From a virus (lineage: Duplodnaviria; Caudoviricetes): a stretch of 64,000 nt of DNA. Below are positions 8,676-61,655 of the stretch, piece by piece; position 1 is the stretch's first letter; each line of letters opens with the position of its first letter. Position numbers and translations under genes: made by a program. The notes under the pieces were generated by a model. The model was given only the letters and a program-made list of their open reading frames with translations, was not told the origin of the DNA and did no database searches. Location: IMG/VR virus record IMGVR_UViG_3300028364_000013; one strand, given 5' to 3'.

Positions 8676-10190
8676 TTATTCATAAATCATAAAATATAGT
8701 TTATGCTTTGAGCGACTAACAGCTACGTAATGAATATTCTTAGACTCTTCATCTTTTTCAGTAAAAGAAACTCTCTCCAGGCGTTTTTTTCCAAGCTTGT
8801 CGTAAATTCCGCACTCCTGAAGAACTTCTGGAGAAACAGAATTAACAACAACACACTCATCAAACTCACGCCCTTTACTCTTGTGTATTGTAGTAATAAA
8901 TTTCTTAGACTTTTTGAACTGCTCTATGAACGTCATTAATTGGGCATCATTTTCGAAGTGACCCTTGAAGTTATTCATTTTACCTCTAAGGTGAGAATCT
9001 ACATCTCCTCCTTTGTATTTCTTAATATCAGCATCGTTGATGAAATTGAAGTACTTCATTGGAACCTTCCTCTTTAGCAGTTCTTTCTCAAGTTTTCTAA
9101 TTGTAGCATTTGTCCTAACCAGCACAACAACTTCTCCTGGTTGTTTCAACAATTCAACAAGCTCATCTAACCTAAGCATCACTTTCCTGTCAACATCACC
9201 TTTGTCTGCGCTATTTGCAGTCGCTGTAAGAGACGAATACTTATTTGAGTTCTCTACAATCAACTCATCACTTCTAAAGTTGACAGAGAGGCTCATTTCG
9301 GTAACATCACGCCTTTTCTTTAGCATTGACTCAAGTTTGCTACAGTTTGCTCCAGAGTATCCATAAATACTTTGATTACGGTCACCAATTAAATAGTAAT
9401 ACTTAGCATTTAACGAAAGAAGTGTTTGAAGCTGTATAGTACTCGTATCTTGATACTCATCTACAAATATGTAATCATACTTATCTCTAAACATCTTAAG
9501 CCACTTATTCTCTCTTAATAAATCACGAACCTCAATAAGCATGTCAGAAAAATCTCTTTTCTTTGTTACTCTTAAGAATTTTCTGTAATCATTATAAAAC
9601 TGAGGAACTGGAGCCTTTACATTATCAGCAGACTGCAACTTAAATGAACCTATAGCTGAAGACAGCTGTTCAGCATCTTCATACATGTTTGCAATAAGTT
9701 CAAAGTGAGCCTCTTTTTGTTCTTTAGTAGCGTGACTACTTGGTTTATGCTCTTGTCTGAACCAGTTTAAAAACTCATAAAATGACGCTATCGCTTTATA
9801 CTTTTTCATACTGGCAAGCAAACTATTAGAGAATGCATGTATAGTAGTAATCGTACAACCCTGTCCATGAGAACTTACTTTCTCACGAACTTGAATCCCT
9901 GCAGACGCAACCCTTTCTCTAAGCTCATCAGTGGCAGCTTTTGTGAAACTGAAAAATATAATCTTGTTTGGGTCAACACCTCTATCAACAAGAGACTTTA
10001 ACCTTTGAACACAACTGAATGACTTTCCTGAACCAGCTGTTGCCGCAAGTATTAAAGAATCTTTTTCTGAATAATTTATAAATGCACTCTGCTCATCTGT
10101 ATATTGAATCTCTGATTTTTTTGCGTGCGATGTACCTTCGAATAAATCAACTTGACCTCTGTCTATTGTAATTTCTTTCTTTTTTCCCAT
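8676..10190 (-). CDS. uvrD: UvrD/Rep-family superfamily-1 helicase
   Basis: AATAGSGKS, FSFTKAA, TIHAF, YIFVDEYQDTS, IGDRNQSIYGYSGA, NFRS, TIHKSKGREFD, YVAVSR. Confidence 0.92.
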   Translation of the reverse strand: MGKKKEITIDRGQVDLFEGTSHAKKSEIQYTDEQSAFINYSEKDSLILAATAGSGKSFSCVQRLKSLVDRGVDPNKIIFFSFTKAATDELRERVASAGIQVREKVSSHGQGCTITTIHAFSNSLLASMKKYKAIASFYEFLNWFRQEHKPSSHATKEQKEAHFELIANMYEDAEQLSSAIGSFKLQSADNVKAPVPQFYNDYRKFLRVTKKRDFSDMLIEVRDLLRENKWLKMFRDKYDYIFVDEYQDTSTIQLQTLLSLNAKYYYLIGDRNQSIYGYSGANCSKLESMLKKRRDVTEMSLSVNFRSDELIVENSNKYSSLTATANSADKGDVDRKVMLRLDELVELLKQPGEVVVLVRTNATIRKLEKELLKRKVPMKYFNFINDADIKKYKGGDVDSHLRGKMNNFKGHFENDAQLMTFIEQFKKSKKFITTIHKSKGREFDECVVVNSVSPEVLQECGIYDKLGKKRLERVSFTEKDEESKNIHYVAVSRSKHKLYFMIYE

Positions 10191-10999
10191 TTTAAAATTT
10201 CTTTTTCTAAAATCGCTTCAATATTTTTCTTATCATAATATGGTATTCTTAAAAGCTTTTTATTTGTTTTTTTGCAAAATTCATTTTTTATAGAATCATT
10301 TTCTTTAATCTTTTTAAAGTTCGAATCACTCTTTTTTGAAATTGTGAATCTGGGCTCAAAATGCTGCTCTCCATCATATTCAATGCACATATCATAATTT
10401 GGAAGGTAAAAGTCAAATGGAAGGTAGTTAATATTCTTACATTCATCAAATTTCTTTTGAGATTCATATAAAACCCTTTTGTTATCCAAGAATCTTTTGA
10501 CCTCCCTTTCTCCGTGAGACAATCTACACCTTGGACACCCTTGTCCAGCTTTATGTTTCCCTGGAGACTGTTCAAAAACGCCATGATTTTCACAAATTAT
10601 TTTAACTTTAGTTTTATCACCAACATATTCAACTAATGAATAATTATAATTATCTCCATGTACTTCTGCAAACCTTTTTATAGCATCAGATTTATCGTCT
10701 GTTTTCTCTTCTTTTGCACAACAAGGACATCCTATACCTTTTAAATGATTCCATATACATTGCTCAAAAACTCCATGTTTTTTACAAATTATCTTAGCCT
10801 TATCTTTAACTTTTTCATACCAAACCAAAGAATAGTCATATCTGCCGCTATGGACTTCAATGGCTTTGTTTATATTTTTCTCAACCCTATCTTTTTTTGA
10901 TTTTTCGTAACATATCTTACATCTGGTTCCATTGTTTGGGATAATTATCCTACCTCCATCTGGATGTAGTTTACACTTTCTTGTTCTAACTTTTTTCAT
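10163..10999 (-). mobile_element. Free-standing homing endonuclease gene (DUF723-like Zn repeats plus PD-(D/E)XK domain)
   Basis: Two YDYSLVxY...KIICxxHGVFEQ...HxxGxGCP repeats; LPFDFYLPNYDMCIEYDGEQHF. Confidence 0.8.
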
Positions 11000-47785: not shown

Positions 47786-48388
47786 TTATCTATTTGATGG
47801 TACATAATTTTCATTTATAGTACCATCGTCATTTAACTTACAATGCACTACTCCGTGGCAATTTGAACAAAGTAAAATACATTTATTTAATTCAGGCAAT
47901 AAATTAATCCAAGATTTTTTTCTCATCTTATTCCAATTCATTTCTTTTTCTTCTGGCTTTTCGTGGTGAAATTCAAAACTTGCATAATGTCCTTTAAACC
48001 CACAATCTACACAACGCCCACCCAAATGCTCTATTGCCCTTTTTTTAAAAACCCTTGCTCTTTCAATATCGTGCTTTCCACTACAGTCTCTACATCTACC
48101 ATAGACTTTCAAACTATTGGGTGAAAAATCATCCTTTATTCTATATGTCTCACAATCATAACACCATTGATGCTCATCTGGACATTCTCCTCTTTTTTCT
48201 AAATTTTCTCTATACTCTAAAATCTTCTTAGCGTGCTCTGGATTTTCCTTTTTAATTCTATTTAATCTCCTCTCTTTCTCTGCTAATCTAAAACACACTT
48301 TACAATCCAACCTCCAACTTCTATTATGCTTATGATACTCTTCTAAATCCTTTACCTCATTACAAGTTCTGCATTTTCTTTCTTCCAT
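47786..48388 (-). mobile_element. HNH endonuclease with Zn-ribbon repeats (probable homing endonuclease)
   Basis: CRTC..CKVC, CYDC..CRDC, GGRCVDCG...FEFHH...CILLCSNCHGVVH. Confidence 0.78.
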
Positions 48389-48444: not shown

Positions 48445-48882
48445 TTATTCACCCTTTTCTAAAAATGATATATCAAGAGTCCATTTTTTCTTACTTCTTT
48501 CTTCCCAAATATTAAACACTTCCTCAATATAATCATCTGCCTGCTTATCAGTTAAACAATTTATTTTCATCATATGTGCTTTAATTTCTTTTTCTTTTCC
48601 AGAAATTCTTGCATATCCAAAATGCTTTGTAGAATGACAATTTGGACAAAGCGCAATTAATCCCTTAAGAGTCTGCTCACAAGACTCATCATCATAATTC
48701 CAAATTTCGTGACACTCCACGGGATGCTTCGGGCCCTTACCGCTGCAAACTTCACATTTATATTCTGCTTTCTTATAGCAGTCTTTTCTAAGGACATCCC
48801 ACTCTGCTTGTGATACATTGGAGCGCACGTTATTATAAAAAGAAGATGCAGGCACAAGTTCTATAGTTAAAATCATAATCAA
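48445..48882 (-). CDS. HNH-like endonuclease
   Basis: CEVCSG...VECHEIWNYD...LIALCPNCHSTKHFG. Confidence 0.78.
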   Translation of the reverse strand: MIMILTIELVPASSFYNNVRSNVSQAEWDVLRKDCYKKAEYKCEVCSGKGPKHPVECHEIWNYDDESCEQTLKGLIALCPNCHSTKHFGYARISGKEKEIKAHMMKINCLTDKQADDYIEEVFNIWEERSKKKWTLDISFLEKGE

Positions 48883-49847
48883 TTAAATTTATCCCATTTA
48901 TGTGTACAAATAAACTTATTTTCCTTAATAAATCCAATTAAATAATCAATAACAATTGGATTATATATTCTAAGTCTAAAATAGGAATCTTTTTGTTTTA
49001 AAGCTTTTTTACTCAAAGTTACATTAAAAATATCTTCTAAGCGTTTTATCCAATATTTTAATATTAACTTCCAATTTTCATGAGAAGTAATAGTTATACA
49101 TCTCGAATTTTTCTTGCTTAAATATAAACTACCATCTCCATCAATGAATCCTATTAAAAAACTTAAAAAATTTTCATCTGACATTTTATTAAAAACACTC
49201 AAAGAAGGCGGGAAATATGTTTTAGTTTTTTCTCCCTTTTTATAATTTATATCATACTTTTTATTTATCAAAGGAATTACTTTTGAATCTTTTAAATAAC
49301 ATATAGCGCTCCCATTACTAACTGTATCAACTCCTAATATATTTACTTTTTTCACTTCATCGTATAGTTTAATATTTTTACAACCAATATAATTAGCAAA
49401 ACCAATAACAACTTCCTTATTTTTCATACACTGATTCAGTTGTATCTTTTTATTTGTAAAATATCCATCAGCAAATAATAGACCTATGTAATAATATGTT
49501 TTAACACTCTCATTCAATAGAATTTCAACATTAGAGTCTCTCATTGTTGAATATTGGTATTCTGCTCTTTTTAATTTTAATTTTTTAGCTTTTGCTAAAA
49601 TAGAGCTCCAACTTCTGTTTTCCAAAAGTTTCAATAATTTTTCAGAAGAAGAGTTTGAATAGTATTTTATTATAATATTCTCTTCCATTTCTGACCATAA
49701 ATTTTCTTCTGTTATTCCAAGTGCTTTTTTTCTATTTTTTACAGAGGGAATTGTTCTTCCAACTAATTCAGCTAAATACTTAATTGGAGATTCTATATTG
49801 TTTTTTAAAATAAAATCCTCCTGCTCTGTCCATCTTTTGTTTTTCAT
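48879..49847 (-). mobile_element. Free-standing LAGLIDADG homing endonuclease gene
   Basis: YYIGLLFADGYF and FLIGFIDGDGSL; N-terminal WTxxED repeats. Confidence 0.85.
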
Positions 49848-49909: not shown

Positions 49910-52249
49910 TCAATTGTTAGCTTCATCTTCTTTTTTACTTAAATCTTTATCAACTCGAACGATTCTCGTTCCTCTCTTAAAATTAACATAACCTTTTTCG
50001 TTCTTTTCAAACTCAGCAACATAAATGCCATTGGCAGCAAGGAGTGGTTGTAGAGATTTCGCAACTGGGTCGAAAGCTCTAAGTGTTGTGAAACTAATTC
50101 CATCACCAACTCTCATTGTTAAATATTCTTTTCCATTCTTACTCATAGAAACCTTAAAGGTATCTACCACAAAAATGTAGAAATCATTATCATCAAAATT
50201 AATAATTGTCTCAACAAGCTTATCTCTCTTAGCTCTCTTGTTTACATCAGCCTTTATGTCCTGAATGTACTTTATTTTTTCAAGGTCAAAATTACACACC
50301 TCAAGGAAATCTGTTCTTTTCGATGCCCAGTTTGTTGGAGGATATTTGTTCTCTTCTTTTTTAACTGGAATGTCAAAAGCTTCGTCATTCATATCAAACA
50401 AAACAGTTTGATTTGCGTTTACTTTCTTTTTCTTTTTTGTCTTAGACTTAAGGTCAGCAAGCTGTTCTCTTGAATCGCTCCAATCATCAAATACGCCAGC
50501 TTTAAGGCAAGCTTCAAAAGCACTTTTATTAAACTTGCTAAACGGCAATCTAAAGAACAAACTCATACTCACAGTCTCAAGGGTTTTTTTCTCCTGACCT
50601 TCTTTGACTTTTATTTCTTTAATCAAATCAAGCATCTCTTCGTATGCAATTGGGCCCAATCCGTTAATACCAGAGAATCCCATAGAAATTTCGTGCTCAC
50701 CAGTCATTGTCCATCTCCATCCAGACTTTCTTGATGGCATCTTTATCTCAATCCCTTTTGACATCGCAGAAGCAATTGCAGAACCAATCCAAGCTTGCTG
50801 TTTTTCTTTGTTACCAGACTTAGGGTGATTTAGAAGGGCGGTATAAAACTCGGTTGGGTAGTAGTGTTTTAAATACAAAGTTTGCATCGCCAAATAACTA
50901 TATGAAAGTGCATGAGACTTATTGAATGAGTATCCAAGGTATTGAATTACCCAATCTTTAATTTTATCTACATCACCTTTGTCATAACCTTGAGCTGCAG
51001 CCCCATCTAAGAACATGTTCCAATACTGCTGGAAACCTTTCCAGTTCTTGTCGTTTTTCTCTGTATCAGTTAGCGTCTCTCCCGCTGAATTTCTTGCAAT
51101 AATTTTAGATGCCTTATCCATATACCTTCTAAGCATATCTCCTTTACCAAGACCCATTCCACCAATCTTATCAGCAATAAACATAAGTTGTTCCTGAAAC
51201 ACAAGTACTCCATTCGTTTCTCCAAGAATCGGCTTCAACGCAGGGTGGATATATTTAATCTTCTCTGGGTTGAATTTGTTTACGATAAACTCTTCGTGTG
51301 CGCCAATTCCCATTGGGCCTGGACGATACAGTGCGTTGGCAGCAACAAGTTCTTCAAATTTATCAACTGCAATACCTCTAATAAGATTGTTCATACCATG
51401 ACTCTCAAACTGAAATATCCCATGATTAAGACCAAGCCTTAATTCTGTAAATAACTTTGGGTCTTCAAGGTCAACGTAATCAACTTTTTGAGAAATATCT
51501 TCTCCCGTTGTTCTTTTTACAATGTCAACAGTTTCCTTAATTACATTTAAGGTTTCTAATTTTAATCTATCCAATTTTAGAATCCCAAGTGCTGAAAGGT
51601 CTTTTCCAGACTTATCCGCCTCCTGAAACGCTGTAACAACACTTCCGTTGGATGTGATTACATTGGTTGGAATATAATCCCAAGATAACCCTGGTGTAAT
51701 TACAACTCCTGCAGCATGCTGTCCAATACCTCTAATGTTTCCATGAAGCTGGAGAGCAGTCTCAATCATCTCCTTATTTTTTGGCTCTCTAATCCAATTT
51801 CTAACTTCTGGACTACACTCTGGTTTATCTGGCCAAGTTTCAAACCAATGCCTAAGAGTGTCGTTGTAATTTAAGAAGTTCGGCATCTCCTTTGTTAATT
51901 TAAACACTCCAGAATCAAACCCAGTAGCATCGCTTCCACGATATGCACGAACAACATCCTTAATTGTATTCTTCTCAGAAAATGTAGAAAAAGTAGCAAC
52001 AGACATAACACGTTCTTTTCCATACTTGTCTTGTAGGAATTGATTTGTTACATCATCTGTACCTGTCATAAAATCAATATCAATATCGGGAGGAGAATTG
52101 TGAATTAAAACACTTGAAATCAATGAGTTATAGCAATCATCTAAAGTTTTACTTGAACTGTAAAAAAGATTATCTTTATCAAAAGATAAATCATAAACCT
52201 TATTTTTATAATCAATTTTATTTATTGATTTTATTTTTGATAATCTCAT
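49910..52249 (-). CDS. dnaE: DNA polymerase III alpha, C-terminal fragment led by a split-intein C half
   Basis: IntC ending LIHN then SPPDIDIDF, HAAGVVI, GIFQFES, LYRPGP, YSFNKSHA. Confidence 0.93.
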   Translation of the reverse strand: MRLSKIKSINKIDYKNKVYDLSFDKDNLFYSSSKTLDDCYNSLISSVLIHNSPPDIDIDFMTGTDDVTNQFLQDKYGKERVMSVATFSTFSEKNTIKDVVRAYRGSDATGFDSGVFKLTKEMPNFLNYNDTLRHWFETWPDKPECSPEVRNWIREPKNKEMIETALQLHGNIRGIGQHAAGVVITPGLSWDYIPTNVITSNGSVVTAFQEADKSGKDLSALGILKLDRLKLETLNVIKETVDIVKRTTGEDISQKVDYVDLEDPKLFTELRLGLNHGIFQFESHGMNNLIRGIAVDKFEELVAANALYRPGPMGIGAHEEFIVNKFNPEKIKYIHPALKPILGETNGVLVFQEQLMFIADKIGGMGLGKGDMLRRYMDKASKIIARNSAGETLTDTEKNDKNWKGFQQYWNMFLDGAAAQGYDKGDVDKIKDWVIQYLGYSFNKSHALSYSYLAMQTLYLKHYYPTEFYTALLNHPKSGNKEKQQAWIGSAIASAMSKGIEIKMPSRKSGWRWTMTGEHEISMGFSGINGLGPIAYEEMLDLIKEIKVKEGQEKKTLETVSMSLFFRLPFSKFNKSAFEACLKAGVFDDWSDSREQLADLKSKTKKKKKVNANQTVLFDMNDEAFDIPVKKEENKYPPTNWASKRTDFLEVCNFDLEKIKYIQDIKADVNKRAKRDKLVETIINFDDNDFYIFVVDTFKVSMSKNGKEYLTMRVGDGISFTTLRAFDPVAKSLQPLLAANGIYVAEFEKNEKGYVNFKRGTRIVRVDKDLSKKEDEANN
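52097..52249 (-). mobile_element. Split intein C-terminal half (51 aa)
   Basis: MRLSKIKSINKIDYKNKVYDLSF...SSVLIHN followed by Ser+1. Confidence 0.85.
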
Positions 52250-53325
52250 AATTTACTTGCTTCTATTTGACTTTTTATATATACTAAAACATTTTCTTTA
52301 TTATCCTTCCAGTCTTTTTCCCAAATTTCTATATAACTACAATTAATAACACTTATAATTTCATTCTTTCTTTTTCTATCATCTCTCCAAATCTCAGATG
52401 CCAATCTTTTTTTGTTTTTATGATAAAAATCATGACTATAAATCATTGGATTACAATGCCAATAATCACCCATAATTTCAATAGCTATATTGTGTTCATT
52501 ATTATAATAATCAAGTTTATAAAATTTACTTTTGTTTACAATTAAAACTTTTTGACCAAATTCAGAATTATAATGATAAGAATCGTTTAATCCTAAATTT
52601 TGTAATTCTAAAATAATTTCCCTCTCCAAGTTAGAGGATTCTCCTAAGTTTTTATTTGTTTTTTTAGCATTTTCCATTTGCCACTCTTTATCCATAAACA
52701 AATTATCTACTCCAAACTTATCCTGCATAGTCATTGTTACAGCTGAATAATGACAACCACGCTCCAAGAACCAACTCACACCATACCTATCATCCATGGT
52801 CTTAGAAATCTTATCCTTAATCTTCTTATATTGAATTGGTGCCTTAAGACCAGTTGTTCCAAGATTTTTATTCAAAGACTTTTCATATTGACTTCTATAC
52901 TCTTTAGTCTTATAATAAAGTGATTTATAATCTTTCTCAGATAATACGTGTCCATTAGACCAGAATTTAATACCCTTTCTTGATGGGTGTAGGTCTATTA
53001 GCTCATCTTTCTCGGAAAACTTATTGTACATTTTAACCTTTGACTCAGTTAATGAATAATCCTGGTTTCCACACTTAATAAGAACAGCACTGTGTCCTCT
53101 TGGTCCTTTTCCAAAATAGCAATCTTCAACAATTCCGATAAAACTTTCTTTATTGTACAATTCTTTTCCAATTAAATTTTCAATAGAAACCGATAATTTA
53201 CTTTTATATGGCCATATTTCTATTTCGTTATTATCAGCTTTTTTAAAGTCAAAAAACTCACACAACCCAGCAACTAAATCACTCTGACCATCGAACTCAA
53301 TATTTAACAACTCTTCTTTTTTCAT
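52246..53325 (-). mobile_element. Free-standing PD-(D/E)XK-type endonuclease gene between the split-intein halves
   Basis: TMDDRYGVSWF/TMQDKFGVDN repeats, YKLDYYNNEHNIAIEIMGDYWHCNP, EIWEKDW; start MKKEELL at 53325 after TATTTATA. Confidence 0.75.
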
Positions 53326-53382
53326 AATTATAAAATCTGTATCTATAAATATAGATAAAAACTTCAAACGATATTTGTATTT

Positions 53383-55584
53383 TTAAAACACAAACAATTG
53401 GTCGCTCTCCATAATACCATCTACACGAACTTCAATTCTCTCGCCATCCCTAAAAACAGGAACAATATGGCACCCAGTCAACTCAACTATAGCTCCATCT
53501 TCAGTTTCAATTTCATAAACATTCTCGTTTTCCTTAAGCTCTCTCTCGTGCTTTTGAACCAAGGTTCCAAGTCCGTGTTCTGTCTGAACTGGGTCTCCAA
53601 CCTCTACTTCAACGATGTTCTTATAAGAGCCATCTTTCATCATGACATTGCAGTTTGATGTTAAACAGTTTCTTTCTGGATTTAGGAAACGCTCAAAATA
53701 AAGATTAAACCTTATTGGGTCAATCTTTGTAATATCAAGACACCACGACAATAGACTTCCTGCTGCAGAACCTCTGGCTGGGCCAATGTCATGACCTTCG
53801 TTTCTGTAGAAATTAATAATCTCCCAGTTTACAAGAAAGTAATCAAGCATCTTCTTTGATTCAATAATACTAATCTCATAATTAAGACGGTCAACATACT
53901 CATTAACCTTTTCATCGGTCATCTCAACGATTCCATTTTTCTTATATATCTCAACTTTTTGCTTTAACTTAATAAACGCAAGTTTTACAATAATCTCCTC
54001 TGGCTTATCTGTGCCAAAATATTCTATTATTTTTTCAGTTGGCTCATATCTTGGATATTTCTCAGTACCAGTATCAAATTCAAAATTACACCTATCAGCT
54101 ATAATGTTTGTATTTTTCATACAAAGTTCAAGAAACTTTTCAGGATACTTAAATCCATACTTTTCGTTCATTTCTCTATAGTCATCGCTATTGAAGTAGT
54201 ATAACTCTCTGTTTTCTTTCAGAGAACAATAGGCAAGCATACGATGTTGCTTAATAGATGTAACTACATCTTGAAGCTTTGAATCCTCTCTTCTTGGATA
54301 GTAGGTGTCATTGCTCATTACTGGAAGCAATTTATACTTACTCATCATTTTAATCAAGAAGTTGTTATACTGCTTCTGAGTGGCGAACTTACTAAACTTA
54401 AACTCCACTATCAAATCTTCTCCAAACTCGCTCCTAAGCATGTTAAGATAGTTCTCTGCGTCAATAACCTTTCCTTTAAGAACCAGGTTTGCTAATTTAC
54501 TATCAAGACCTGAGGTAGATATTATTAAACCCTCTTTATATTTCAAAAGCCACTCTGTAGTTATTCTTGATTCTTTCTTAAATAACCCCTCTGTGTTTGC
54601 GAGGTATATCAAATGATTCAGATTTCTATATCCAATTTCATTTTTTATGAAAATCTTTATTTTATAATTATCTCCCTCAAGCTCTCTGTCTTCAAATTTT
54701 CCAATATTGTCATTCAAGAAAGACTCGACACCAAAAACTGGTTTAATCCCTTTTGACTTACATTTATTGAAGAATTCAAATGAACCAGATAATGTTGAGT
54801 TATCTGTTATTGCCATTGAGGTGTGGCCATACTCTTTTGCAAGCTTAATATACTCGTCTACAGAACCAGCTCCATCAAGAATAGAGTGAAATGTATGGAG
54901 ACCAAGTGGAGTTACTCGGATTGAATCGCCCGCTTGCATAGGTTTCTCTTCTGCAACTTTAGTAAGAGAATCCATTAAATCTTCTGCGCCCTCTTCTTCT
55001 TTGAATCCAAGGATGCCTATTCTTTGAAGTTCGAAAAAACATTTTGCAAGCGCAGTAACATCCGCAAGTGCATCGTGAGCATCTTCGAATCCTTTGTCAA
55101 ATAATTTTTGGTGAAGTTCTGTTTGAGAAGGAAATTTCATCCCACTCCTACCTCTTTTGTTTGGAATTGCCACGAAGTCAGTTGTGAGCTTCATGGTGTC
55201 AATGTGATTTATGTCTGGAATGCAGTTGTACATTCCCTCTCTAAGGAATTCACAGCCTGTTACATTTTCATCAAAGGAAATGTTGTGAGCAATAAGATGC
55301 TTATTGTTCTTTACAGCTTCTGAAAACTTTTCAAGCGCCTGCCTCAAAGGAACTCCATCCTCTTTAGCTCTCTCGTTTGTAATCCTATGAATCGCTATTG
55401 CTTCATCAGGAATCCTAAACCCTTGAGGTTTAATAATTAAATTCTGAGAATCTGTCTCTACACCATTCGCATCAAAGATTTTCCAAGCAATCTGAACCAT
55501 TCTTGGCCAGTTGTTAAAATCAGTAATTGGTGCGCTAAAATTCTTTGCCTTACCAGTTGTTTCGGTATCAAATACTATATACAT
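53383..55584 (-). CDS. dnaE: DNA polymerase III alpha, N-terminal fragment (DEDDh exonuclease + PHP + polymerase start) ending in a split-intein N half
   Basis: MYIVFDTETTG...HDALADV, LHTFHS, GPARGSAAGSLL, LYFERFLNPERN then CLT. Confidence 0.93.
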   Translation of the reverse strand: MYIVFDTETTGKAKNFSAPITDFNNWPRMVQIAWKIFDANGVETDSQNLIIKPQGFRIPDEAIAIHRITNERAKEDGVPLRQALEKFSEAVKNNKHLIAHNISFDENVTGCEFLREGMYNCIPDINHIDTMKLTTDFVAIPNKRGRSGMKFPSQTELHQKLFDKGFEDAHDALADVTALAKCFFELQRIGILGFKEEEGAEDLMDSLTKVAEEKPMQAGDSIRVTPLGLHTFHSILDGAGSVDEYIKLAKEYGHTSMAITDNSTLSGSFEFFNKCKSKGIKPVFGVESFLNDNIGKFEDRELEGDNYKIKIFIKNEIGYRNLNHLIYLANTEGLFKKESRITTEWLLKYKEGLIISTSGLDSKLANLVLKGKVIDAENYLNMLRSEFGEDLIVEFKFSKFATQKQYNNFLIKMMSKYKLLPVMSNDTYYPRREDSKLQDVVTSIKQHRMLAYCSLKENRELYYFNSDDYREMNEKYGFKYPEKFLELCMKNTNIIADRCNFEFDTGTEKYPRYEPTEKIIEYFGTDKPEEIIVKLAFIKLKQKVEIYKKNGIVEMTDEKVNEYVDRLNYEISIIESKKMLDYFLVNWEIINFYRNEGHDIGPARGSAAGSLLSWCLDITKIDPIRFNLYFERFLNPERNCLTSNCNVMMKDGSYKNIVEVEVGDPVQTEHGLGTLVQKHERELKENENVYEIETEDGAIVELTGCHIVPVFRDGERIEVRVDGIMESDQLFVF
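53386..53667 (-). mobile_element. Split intein N-terminal half (94 aa)
   Basis: CLTSNCNVMMKDGSYKNIVEVEVGD (block A) and VYEIETEDGAIVELTGCHIV (block B TxxH). Confidence 0.88.
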
Positions 55585-60108: not shown

Positions 60109-61047
60109 TTATTCTTCCACCTCTTTGAATACATTCGACCTGGTAATCTTATATTTTTTAACATTTCCAGATTTTGCATTAATATAACCTTCTTTCCACC
60201 ACTTAAGCATTTGCTCTTTATCAAATATCAAAGAATTCTCTGTCAATCCATATGGTGTGTAATAAATATTTATTGAGATTTCTCTCCCATGTGACTCAAG
60301 CTTATTAAGGTCAATATTATCCTTAGCTATCTTTCTCATCAAAATCTCTATCAGCCTAACAAAGTATTGAAATAAATTATTAATCATAGCTCTCTTAACA
60401 ACACCAAAGCCTTCTGGGCTTAACACAATTACATCAATTTCAGTTGCCCCATTCTCAATAGCTACTTGAATTGGTATATGTTGATGAATTGCTCCATCAG
60501 CATATTGGTTCCCGTCTTTTTCTAAAATAGATGTGTATATTGGAGCATTACAAGATGCCCAGAGCCAATCAACGAAATCCTCATACGAATTATCGTTTGA
60601 AGATTTGAACTCAGCCCTTTTGTCTGTAAGGTTTGAAACCACTGCGATAACTTCTTTATCGGATTTATAAAGTCTTTCAAAATGTTTTTCAGTAAAATGT
60701 TTCTTTATTAAATTCCTTAAGTTATCAGTTTCTCCAATAGTTTTTTTGGATGTAATTAACCTTTTGATTGCATTCCACCTTCTAACACTGCCATCTTCGT
60801 TAAAGGGGTTTATTGAGAATATATCTTCAGTTGTAATGCTTGTATATCCCTCTTTTAGTATGCTTAATTCTCGTATAGATGACAATGGAGCAAGAAGACT
60901 TCCTGTTGATGTTCCCACGTAAAGGTCATAATCTTTGTCTTGGTCTTCGAGAAGATGTTGTATTACTCCACCAGCCCAAGCGCCTTTTGCCCCTCCACCA
61001 GAAATACACAAAGCTCGTTTTCTTTTTTTTACCCCTTTACTTCCCAT
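60109..61047 (-). CDS. Patatin-like phospholipase 1
   Basis: ISGGGAKG, GTSTG nucleophile elbow, ASCNAP, YADGA. Confidence 0.9.
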   Translation of the reverse strand: MGSKGVKKRKRALCISGGGAKGAWAGGVIQHLLEDQDKDYDLYVGTSTGSLLAPLSSIRELSILKEGYTSITTEDIFSINPFNEDGSVRRWNAIKRLITSKKTIGETDNLRNLIKKHFTEKHFERLYKSDKEVIAVVSNLTDKRAEFKSSNDNSYEDFVDWLWASCNAPIYTSILEKDGNQYADGAIHQHIPIQVAIENGATEIDVIVLSPEGFGVVKRAMINNLFQYFVRLIEILMRKIAKDNIDLNKLESHGREISINIYYTPYGLTENSLIFDKEQMLKWWKEGYINAKSGNVKKYKITRSNVFKEVEE

Positions 61048-61655
61048 ATATATCCTTTACACTTAAATGTCCCTCTTCTTATACAATTTTGGATTGCTGA
61101 TGTATTAACGCCTATATTTCTTGCAGCCTCTCCATAGCTATTAAATTCTTTTATCAAACTCCCTTCTAAATCGTATTGATTGACTTTTTTAGAATTTACT
61201 GGTATTTGTCCTTTTTTAAATTCAGTTTTAGGACTTAACCTTTCTCCTTTTTTTATTCTTGTCTCTTTTCCGATTTCATTTCCCTTTTTAAAAGTTGTTT
61301 TGTTTGACTTAATAGAACCAATAACACCTTTATTCCATGGTACATTTCCCTTATCTACGCCATCTCCACCAGAAGTCTCATTGGTCAAATTAAATCCCCA
61401 GCACTTAAACTGTTCAATCCAATAACTCTCCCAAAACCTCCAATCTTCTTCTAAAATCTCGTCAATAACTTCTATAGCTGGTTCTAAATCTCTTTTTAGA
61501 AGACTTTTAATCCAAGCCTTCTTGTGTGATGTAGTTGATTTTTTGCTTTCATTTATATGTCTATTTAATCTTTTTGCAATATTTGTAGTTTTTCCAACAT
61601 ACTTAACATCATTTGTTAATGGGTCAATCAACACATATATAATTACAGTCCTCAT
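61029..61655 (-). mobile_element. Free-standing GIY-YIG homing endonuclease gene with NUMOD-type C-terminus
   Basis: IIYVLIDPLTNDVKYVGKT...RLNRH, GFNLTN, PWNKG, KKVNQYDLEG...FNSYGEAAR. Confidence 0.88.

Follow-up and report, generated by a model that had tools for sequence, protein, structure and literature searches.

Here we describe a fractured dnaE gene in a window of 64,000 nucleotides (nt), the whole stretch of DNA that was analyzed, which forms part of the 81-kb IMG/VR virus record IMGVR_UViG_3300028364_000013. Positions 55584..49910 of the minus strand are filled by three co-oriented genes: the N-terminal half of the DNA polymerase III (Pol III) alpha gene fused to an N-terminal intein half (dnaE-N-IntN), a free-standing endonuclease gene, and a C-terminal intein half fused to the rest of the polymerase (IntC-dnaE-C). 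Although fractured, the dnaE of this giant T4-type lake-water phage is very probably functional: the two halves would be joined by trans-splicing, and the gene between them would encode a Vsr-like homing endonuclease. The locus is a real and probably functional example of a published fractured-gene class, with both splicing and cleavage predicted from sequence. An earlier note on this DNA had read it as a fractured dnaE whose halves carry a natural split intein and flank an endonuclease gene, and the open reading frames (ORFs), profile matches, and gapless alignment described below bear this out.

Two halves of one polymerase gene

The first gene is an ORF of 733 amino acids (aa) (55584..53386, minus strand; stop TAA at 53385-53383). 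Its dnaE-N extein of 639 aa (53668..55584) contains a DnaQ-like 3'-5' exonuclease and a PHP domain, runs on into the Pol III alpha catalytic domain, and ends within it at FERFLNPERN. The 94-aa IntN (53386..53667) follows directly. The third gene is a 779-aa ORF (52249..49913, minus strand; stop at 49912-49910) that opens with a 51-aa IntC (52097..52249) and continues as the 728-aa dnaE-C extein (49913..52096). This extein begins with the Ser+1 of SPPDIDIDF, which includes the catalytic aspartates, and contains the rest of the palm, the fingers, and a helix-hairpin-helix (HhH) domain. The minus-strand translations confirm what had been read earlier at both borders, namely FERFLNPERN followed by a 94-aa IntN with Cys1 and TGCH, and a 51-aa IntC ending in HN ahead of SPPDIDIDF.

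The two halves abut exactly on the same protein profiles. The Pfam DNA_pol3_alpha profile is matched over positions 15–99 in the first half (residues 555–639) and 99–259 in the second, and PHROG 405 (phrog_405, DNA polymerase) is matched over 34–440 and 441–1025, respectively. The other Pfam matches are RNase_T (3–183) and PHP (229–395) in dnaE-N, and DNA_pol3_finger and HHH_6 in dnaE-C. The dnaE-C match is unique, with no second one across the 81-kb record.

Splicing in silico gives a product of 1367 aa, with the predicted junction peptide FLNPERNSPPDIDIDF. Aligned to nine full-length uninterrupted dnaE alleles (1362–1383 aa), this product shows no gap at the junction; it is 90.3–90.9% identical to the three closest, L001–L003. 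Alignment to the PDB chains 2hnh/2hpi places the junction at V397|S398 in E. coli and V459|S460 in Taq, three residues ahead of the first catalytic Asp of Pol III alpha. We take the catalytic Asp residues to be D401/D403 in E. coli and D463/D465 in Taq. The alignment supports the earlier suggestion that splicing would rebuild NPERN-SPPDIDIDF beside the catalytic aspartates.

Our scan of viral contigs for related loci returned 19. Among related contigs that span the insertion site, 12 are empty, with an uninterrupted dnaE, and four are occupied. The nearest relatives, L001–L003, are empty at the site, and the more distant L004, L013, and L015/L016 are occupied. Across the junction, the L001-type empty allele reads NPERD-SPPDID. 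One otherwise uninterrupted allele, L008:6001-10098, has an in-frame stop at codon 741, which may reflect a sequencing error or a break of a different kind. In the phage collection, a protein search found relatives among cultured phages at less than 32% identity, with matches beginning only past IntC, and a blastn search with 7.5 kb of the locus found no match.

The split intein

IntN starts with CLTSNC, which supplies Cys1, and its block B reads LTGCH (Thr-x-x-His). In IntC, about 12 inserted aa separate block F (VYDLSFDKDNLF) from a block G that ends in His-Asn (VLIHN). The residue set of a class 1 intein with the Hedgehog/intein (HINT) fold is therefore complete (C1, LTGCH, VYD, HN, and S+1). 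IntN matches Hint/hedgehog and intein models. The best solved relative of its family profile is the gp41-1 split intein 6qaz (E 6.5e-6), and there is a weak match to 7qil, annotated as a "DnaE intein" (E 0.025). Block F of IntC matches archaeal inteins with an E of about 2e-3.

Cys1 and the block B His of IntN are invariant in 17 relatives, as are Y19, D20 (the block F Asp), H50, and N51 of IntC, and Ser+1 is nearly invariant. The ratio of nonsynonymous to synonymous substitution rates (dN/dS) for IntN is 0.05–0.06 against L004 and L013, with synonymous sites saturated, indicating purifying selection. In L015, the intein halves share about 76% protein identity with those of the window, versus 51% for the exteins. 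A search of 1.8 billion representative proteins returned 13 clusters at E <1e-10. In the top 10 of these IntN ends the protein, which argues for an intein family that is habitually split. A contiguous mini-intein relative, with about 30% identity, sits at the equivalent FERF...R|C point in protein P0084. A full-text literature search with the intein peptide strings found no paper.

We also predicted the structure of the IntN/IntC complex. Its interaction prediction score from aligned errors (ipSAE) was 0.63 (three runs, 0.60–0.66), versus 0.00 for the best of three controls. For comparison, 58 of 80 solved complexes and 2 of 110 mismatched pairs reached that mark. Contact agreement across runs was at least 94%, and the predicted local distance difference test (pLDDT) of the partners was at least 66. 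Since split-intein complexes have already been solved, the score may partly show likeness to known structures and is not proof of binding.

The IntC insert lies between blocks F and G and is a family trait, with IntC measuring 48–51 aa throughout the family. Profile matches to solved inteins reach only IntC residues 5–35, and the predicted interface names every internal IntC residue except 35 and 37–43, in keeping with the extra loop that had been noticed in the sequence. In the subclade to which the window belongs, IntN has two additional cysteines, Cys6 of CLTSNC and Cys68 of the block B TGCH, and the IntC insert has a third, Cys39. A doubtful reading of these cysteines is that the insert is a regulatory loop, which would make trans-splicing of the replicase conditional, for example on redox state or zinc, and so time the assembly of active polymerase during infection. 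It is equally doubtful, as a separate matter, that the pair is a fast Ser+1 intein orthogonal to Npu and gp41-1.

In the mechanism we propose, the polymerase would be translated as two polypeptides, DnaE-N-IntN and IntC-DnaE-C. The intein halves would then come together in a class 1 HINT fold, and trans-splicing would proceed via Cys1 and Ser+1. The product would be a 1367-aa Pol III alpha in which NPERN-SPPDIDIDF is restored beside the catalytic aspartates.

The endonuclease and its control element

The endonuclease gene (52249..53325, minus strand) encodes 359 aa. It most likely starts at the ATG at 53325 (MKKEELL) and ends at a TGA at 52248-52246, which shares bases with the ATG of IntC in a 4-nt ATGA overlap. 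Translation of IntC-dnaE-C would start at this overlap. We did not adopt the TTG at 53367, the start given by the ORF finder for this middle ORF, as it falls inside a conserved non-coding element.

By sequence, the endonuclease matches phrog_3339, a homing endonuclease family, and weakly DUF7487. We found 40 homologs, only one of which has a functional name, very-short-patch-repair endonuclease. Homologs down to 34–38% identity occur on dozens of contigs, always between dnaE halves. Searches of PDB sequences with the single sequence and with a profile gave nothing useful, and Vsr and I-Bth0305I emerged from fold comparison alone.

An AlphaFold model built on 35 homologs (pLDDT 88.9) has an N-terminal small β-barrel, a helical middle that resembles DUF7487, and, at about residues 229–359, a Vsr-like (EDxHD) nuclease domain that forms the C-terminus. 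When this last region was compared using VIA-align, the matches were 3hrl, a DUF559-like protein (Z 11.7), E. coli Vsr, 1cw0 (Z 11.5), and the catalytic domain of I-Bth0305I, 3r3p (Z 10.9, with 97/97 residues aligned at 19% identity). E283, D287, H290, and D316 vary little or not at all across the 35 homologs and correspond to the EDxHD signature (PMC3239194). The N-terminal 225 residues gave weak structural matches (Z 4–5) and a weak Pfam match to DUF7487, without a NUMOD match. The dN/dS of the gene against L004 is 0.09. Based on the model, the protein is predicted to be a free-standing Vsr-like homing endonuclease of the EDxHD family. It would presumably cut the intein-free dnaE of co-infecting relatives near the site, and break repair would then copy the whole IntN-endonuclease-IntC cassette into the cut allele.

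Between the IntN stop and the endonuclease ATG lies a non-coding spacer of 57 nt (53326..53382, minus strand). It holds a conserved 25-nt palindromic element (53364..53340), which includes the motif TATTTATA at 53351..53344, 18 nt upstream of the ATG. The window, L004, L015, and L024/L025 share this 25-nt element without a single difference, although the synonymous sites of the flanking genes are saturated. The more distant locus L022 has a different palindrome, containing TATAAATA.

In the window, TATTTATA occurs in 17 sense-strand copies (22 on both strands, versus 7 expected). The copies are mostly 3–20 nt ahead of start codons and precede 16 ORFs, including the portal gene, a tape-measure-like gene, two very large ORFs, and five nuclease-like genes (the dnaE endonuclease, a LAGLIDADG ORF, and two or three HNH-like ORFs). 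No copy precedes dnaE-N. This placement ahead of structural and other nuclease genes suggests late, restricted expression, as in Aeh1 mobE. The element fits a late-type promoter and would be the counterpart of the TATAAATA within a hairpin that is known from fractured genes and from Aeh1 mobE. The earlier note had given the endonuclease its own late motif; the motif is there, and "late" is what its position ahead of these genes suggests. A sigma-70 scan was uninformative (33 promoter-like sites versus 23 expected), and a terminator scan found none between the three genes.

Several further ORFs of the window follow TATTTATA. A 322-aa LAGLIDADG-type ORF (48882-49847, minus strand) lies between the dnaE stop and a 145-aa gene (MIMILTIELVP...). 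In L001–L003, L005, L009, and L017, the 145-aa gene directly overlaps the dnaE stop, so the LAGLIDADG-type ORF appears to be a second free-standing endonuclease insertion behind dnaE. Three HNH-like or Cys-rich nuclease-like ORFs (47789-48388, 10166-10999, and 61032-61655, all minus strand) have TATTTATA 3–13 nt before their starts; among the relatives, the 200-aa ORF of these three is present in L017 only. Judged by its ORFs, this region of the genome is rich in putative free-standing homing-endonuclease genes.

Alternatives, known systems, and other dnaE breaks

Sequencing runs that contain the window sequence are lake-water and salt-lake metagenomes. An identical endonuclease protein is present on a 364-kb contig, which together with the T4-type portal in relatives points to a giant T4-like aquatic phage. 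In each of two runs, the full 5.9 kb lies at identity on one contig, though these runs may be the window's own source. The architecture is repeated in L004, L013, L015/L016, L021, L022/L023, and L024/L025, which come from different samples. In addition, the independent salt-lake run X5 contains a 4.6-kb contig on which dnaE-C and the cassette's IntN end are ordered as in the window. Over IntN and the 5' part of the endonuclease this contig is 97.4% identical to the window (28 differences/1075 nt). Its dnaE-C parts are 84–86% identical, and 52094-52695, covering IntC and the endonuclease 3' end, is too diverged to align. Across the salt-lake runs X3 and X5, window positions 52696-53770 are 97–100% identical, with the adjoining dnaE at about 85% or too diverged, and contig breaks repeat near 52696 and 53682-53770. 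Stretches of the window for which X3 and X5 gave no cover were treated as uninformative. By these identities the surroundings of the intein-endonuclease cassette are a recombination mosaic, and the pattern in X5 suggests recent exchange of part of the cassette. Short contigs in runs X1 and X2 join the extein flanks by 15 other letters (read as NPERVS). They were not used as evidence, as they match by only 18–25 nt on each side and are probably another organism's dnaE.

The recurrence of the same architecture in independent metagenome contigs bears on whether the locus could be a contiguous intein-endonuclease insert that was distorted in assembly or sequencing, an artefact of the kind that the earlier note had named, beside a lack of spliced product, as fatal to its reading. 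The TTG listed as the start of the middle ORF does share a frame with IntN, with one TAA between them. However, the IntC frame differs from that of the endonuclease, with the ATGA overlap between them, and L004, L015, and L024, which come from other samples, have kept the TAA, the spacer, and the ATG. With IntN also ending the protein in the top 10 clusters, and with independent assemblies reproducing the locus, an artefact is next to impossible. Read-through of the TAA, or an alternative code, fusing IntN to the endonuclease was likewise rejected, since IntC is read in a different frame and the spacer's conservation is at the level of DNA rather than of protein.

Other observations do weigh against a functional, trans-splicing gene. 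The block F position that is often His in inteins is Asn here (DKDNLF), and either this Asn or the IntC insert could slow splicing. The dN/dS of IntC is 0.17–0.68, above that of IntN, on very few sites. The hairpin of the spacer (−9.5 kcal/mol) is no more stable than shuffled sequences (z −0.83). The Asn and the insert would also fit an intein relic, whose halves no longer splice and merely hold the polymerase pieces together non-covalently. A relic would be expected to lose its splicing residues, yet Cys1, TxxH, the block F Asp, His-Asn, and Ser+1 are all present and are invariant or almost so in the 17 relatives despite saturated synonymous divergence. Because these residues are retained under such strong constraint, we consider a relic unlikely. 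It is very unlikely that the endonuclease insertion disabled dnaE and that another polymerase replicates the phage. Both halves are full-length open frames with all Pfam domains, the exteins are under purifying selection (dN/dS 0.08–0.09 against L004), and the fractured layout is retained in lineages with only about 51% extein identity.

The fractured gene also has close published counterparts, as had been supposed from the sequence, and matches them point by point. Fractured genes from the Global Ocean Sampling (GOS) metagenomes include three DnaE loci (DnaE-1, -2, and -3) with integration points unlike the cyanobacterial one (Dassa et al. 2009, PMC2677866). Members of the class have a Vsr-like or GIY-YIG endonuclease, an upstream hairpin with a late-promoter element, and an overlap between the endonuclease and IntC, with an IntN of 88–105 aa, an IntC of 33–54 aa, a spacer of 27–51 nt, and an overlap of 6–69 nt (PMC2677866). 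Like these genes, the window has a host N-terminus with IntN, a short spacer, a free-standing endonuclease, and IntC with the host C-terminus, all on one strand, and its IntN and IntC lengths are within the reported ranges. It further shares with the class a Vsr-like endonuclease, an upstream palindrome resembling a late-promoter element, an endonuclease 3' end that overlaps IntC, and an aquatic phage source, and with the DnaE loci the host gene. Unlike the class, its spacer is 57 nt, its overlap is 4 nt, and its sense-strand motif is TATTTATA rather than TATAAATA. The published DnaE loci are incomplete, and full pairs were available only for gp41-1, gp41-8, IMPDH-1, NrdJ-1, and NrdA-2 (PMC2677866). 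In contrast, both halves and the whole polymerase are complete here, in an 81-kb phage contig, and empty alleles are available at 90% identity. The insertion point of the window may coincide with that of DnaE-1, -2, or -3.

The novelty is modest, because fractured DnaE loci with an IntC of up to 54 aa had already been described by Dassa et al. The locus brings no new principle and leaves knowledge of how such elements work unchanged. What it offers is a full-length DnaE fractured gene in context, where the 2009 paper had DnaE cases as fragments only; the two parts of the polymerase, the two of the intein, the endonuclease, and the control element are found here together. The natural empty-site alleles, at about 90% identity, are ready substrates for a homing assay. 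The intein pair, with Cys1, Ser+1, and an unusual IntC insert, is a candidate tool for protein engineering.

Among solved inteins, the closest relative of the IntN profile is gp41-1 (6qaz, 6riz), also a split intein of a fractured gene from phage metagenomes. Cys1 and Ser+1 are also the residues used by gp41-1, whose IntC measures about 37 aa, compared to 51 aa with the insert between blocks F and G in the window. Its host protein is a helicase, and only about 68 IntN residues align. The cyanobacterial DnaE split intein (Ssp, Npu) is, like that of the window, a naturally split class 1 intein in Pol III alpha, with trans-splicing predicted here to rejoin the halves. The cyanobacterial C-extein begins with Cys-Phe-Asn (PMC3585056), whereas the window has Ser+1, and its intein halves are adjacent with an endonuclease between them rather than at distant loci. 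The two sites are distinct, as had been claimed: YSFNKSH is uninterrupted in dnaE-C, and the junction NPERN|SPPDID lies about 390 residues upstream, before the catalytic Asp-x-Asp.

I-Bth0305I, the prototype EDxHD (Vsr-like) homing endonuclease, is found in a group I intron of recA and contains NUMOD and helix-turn-helix (HTH) motifs (PMC3239194). The endonuclease described here similarly has a C-terminal Vsr-like domain with conserved Glu/Asp/His/Asp and an N-terminal region presumed to bind DNA. In the model, this region consists of a β-barrel and DUF7487-like helices, and it gave no NUMOD match. For phage Aeh1, the work of Gibb and Edgell, as relayed in PMC2677866, describes mobE as an HNH endonuclease gene that splits nrdA, the halves of which assemble non-covalently without an intein. 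In that account, mobE resembles the present gene in being free-standing, in splitting an essential replication-related gene, and in having a late-promoter element in a hairpin just upstream. It differs in that the halves in the window carry intein parts and the endonuclease is Vsr-like rather than HNH.

Breaks at other points were seen in the dnaE of relatives. In L013:5971-12882, and also in L021, L022, L024, and L007, the gene is in three or four pieces, broken by as many as three split inteins with a separate ORF between the halves of each. The breaks lie at GPARG|SAAGS, NPERN|S(S/P)PDID, and YSFNK|SHS, the last being four residues from the cyanobacterial point Y|CFNKSH. In L007, the third-site intein is present and the NPERN site is empty, which indicates that the sites are occupied independently. 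L022:2402-6602 and P0064 contain a homologous intein (IntN 93 aa, IntC 44 aa) six codons downstream of the site in the window, at ADID|CDF within the catalytic motif. It has Cys+1 in place of Ser+1, and its endonuclease is homologous to that of the window at 34% identity. These two cassettes suggest one intein-endonuclease family at two neighboring insertion points. With presence or absence at three dnaE sites, up to four gene pieces, and this sister intein, the group is a natural system for studying gene breaking by homing endonucleases. In a related phage, the T4-type portal gene (L021:1-1011) is annotated with a product of 1487 aa that has two Intein_splicing matches, and this portal seems to carry inteins too.

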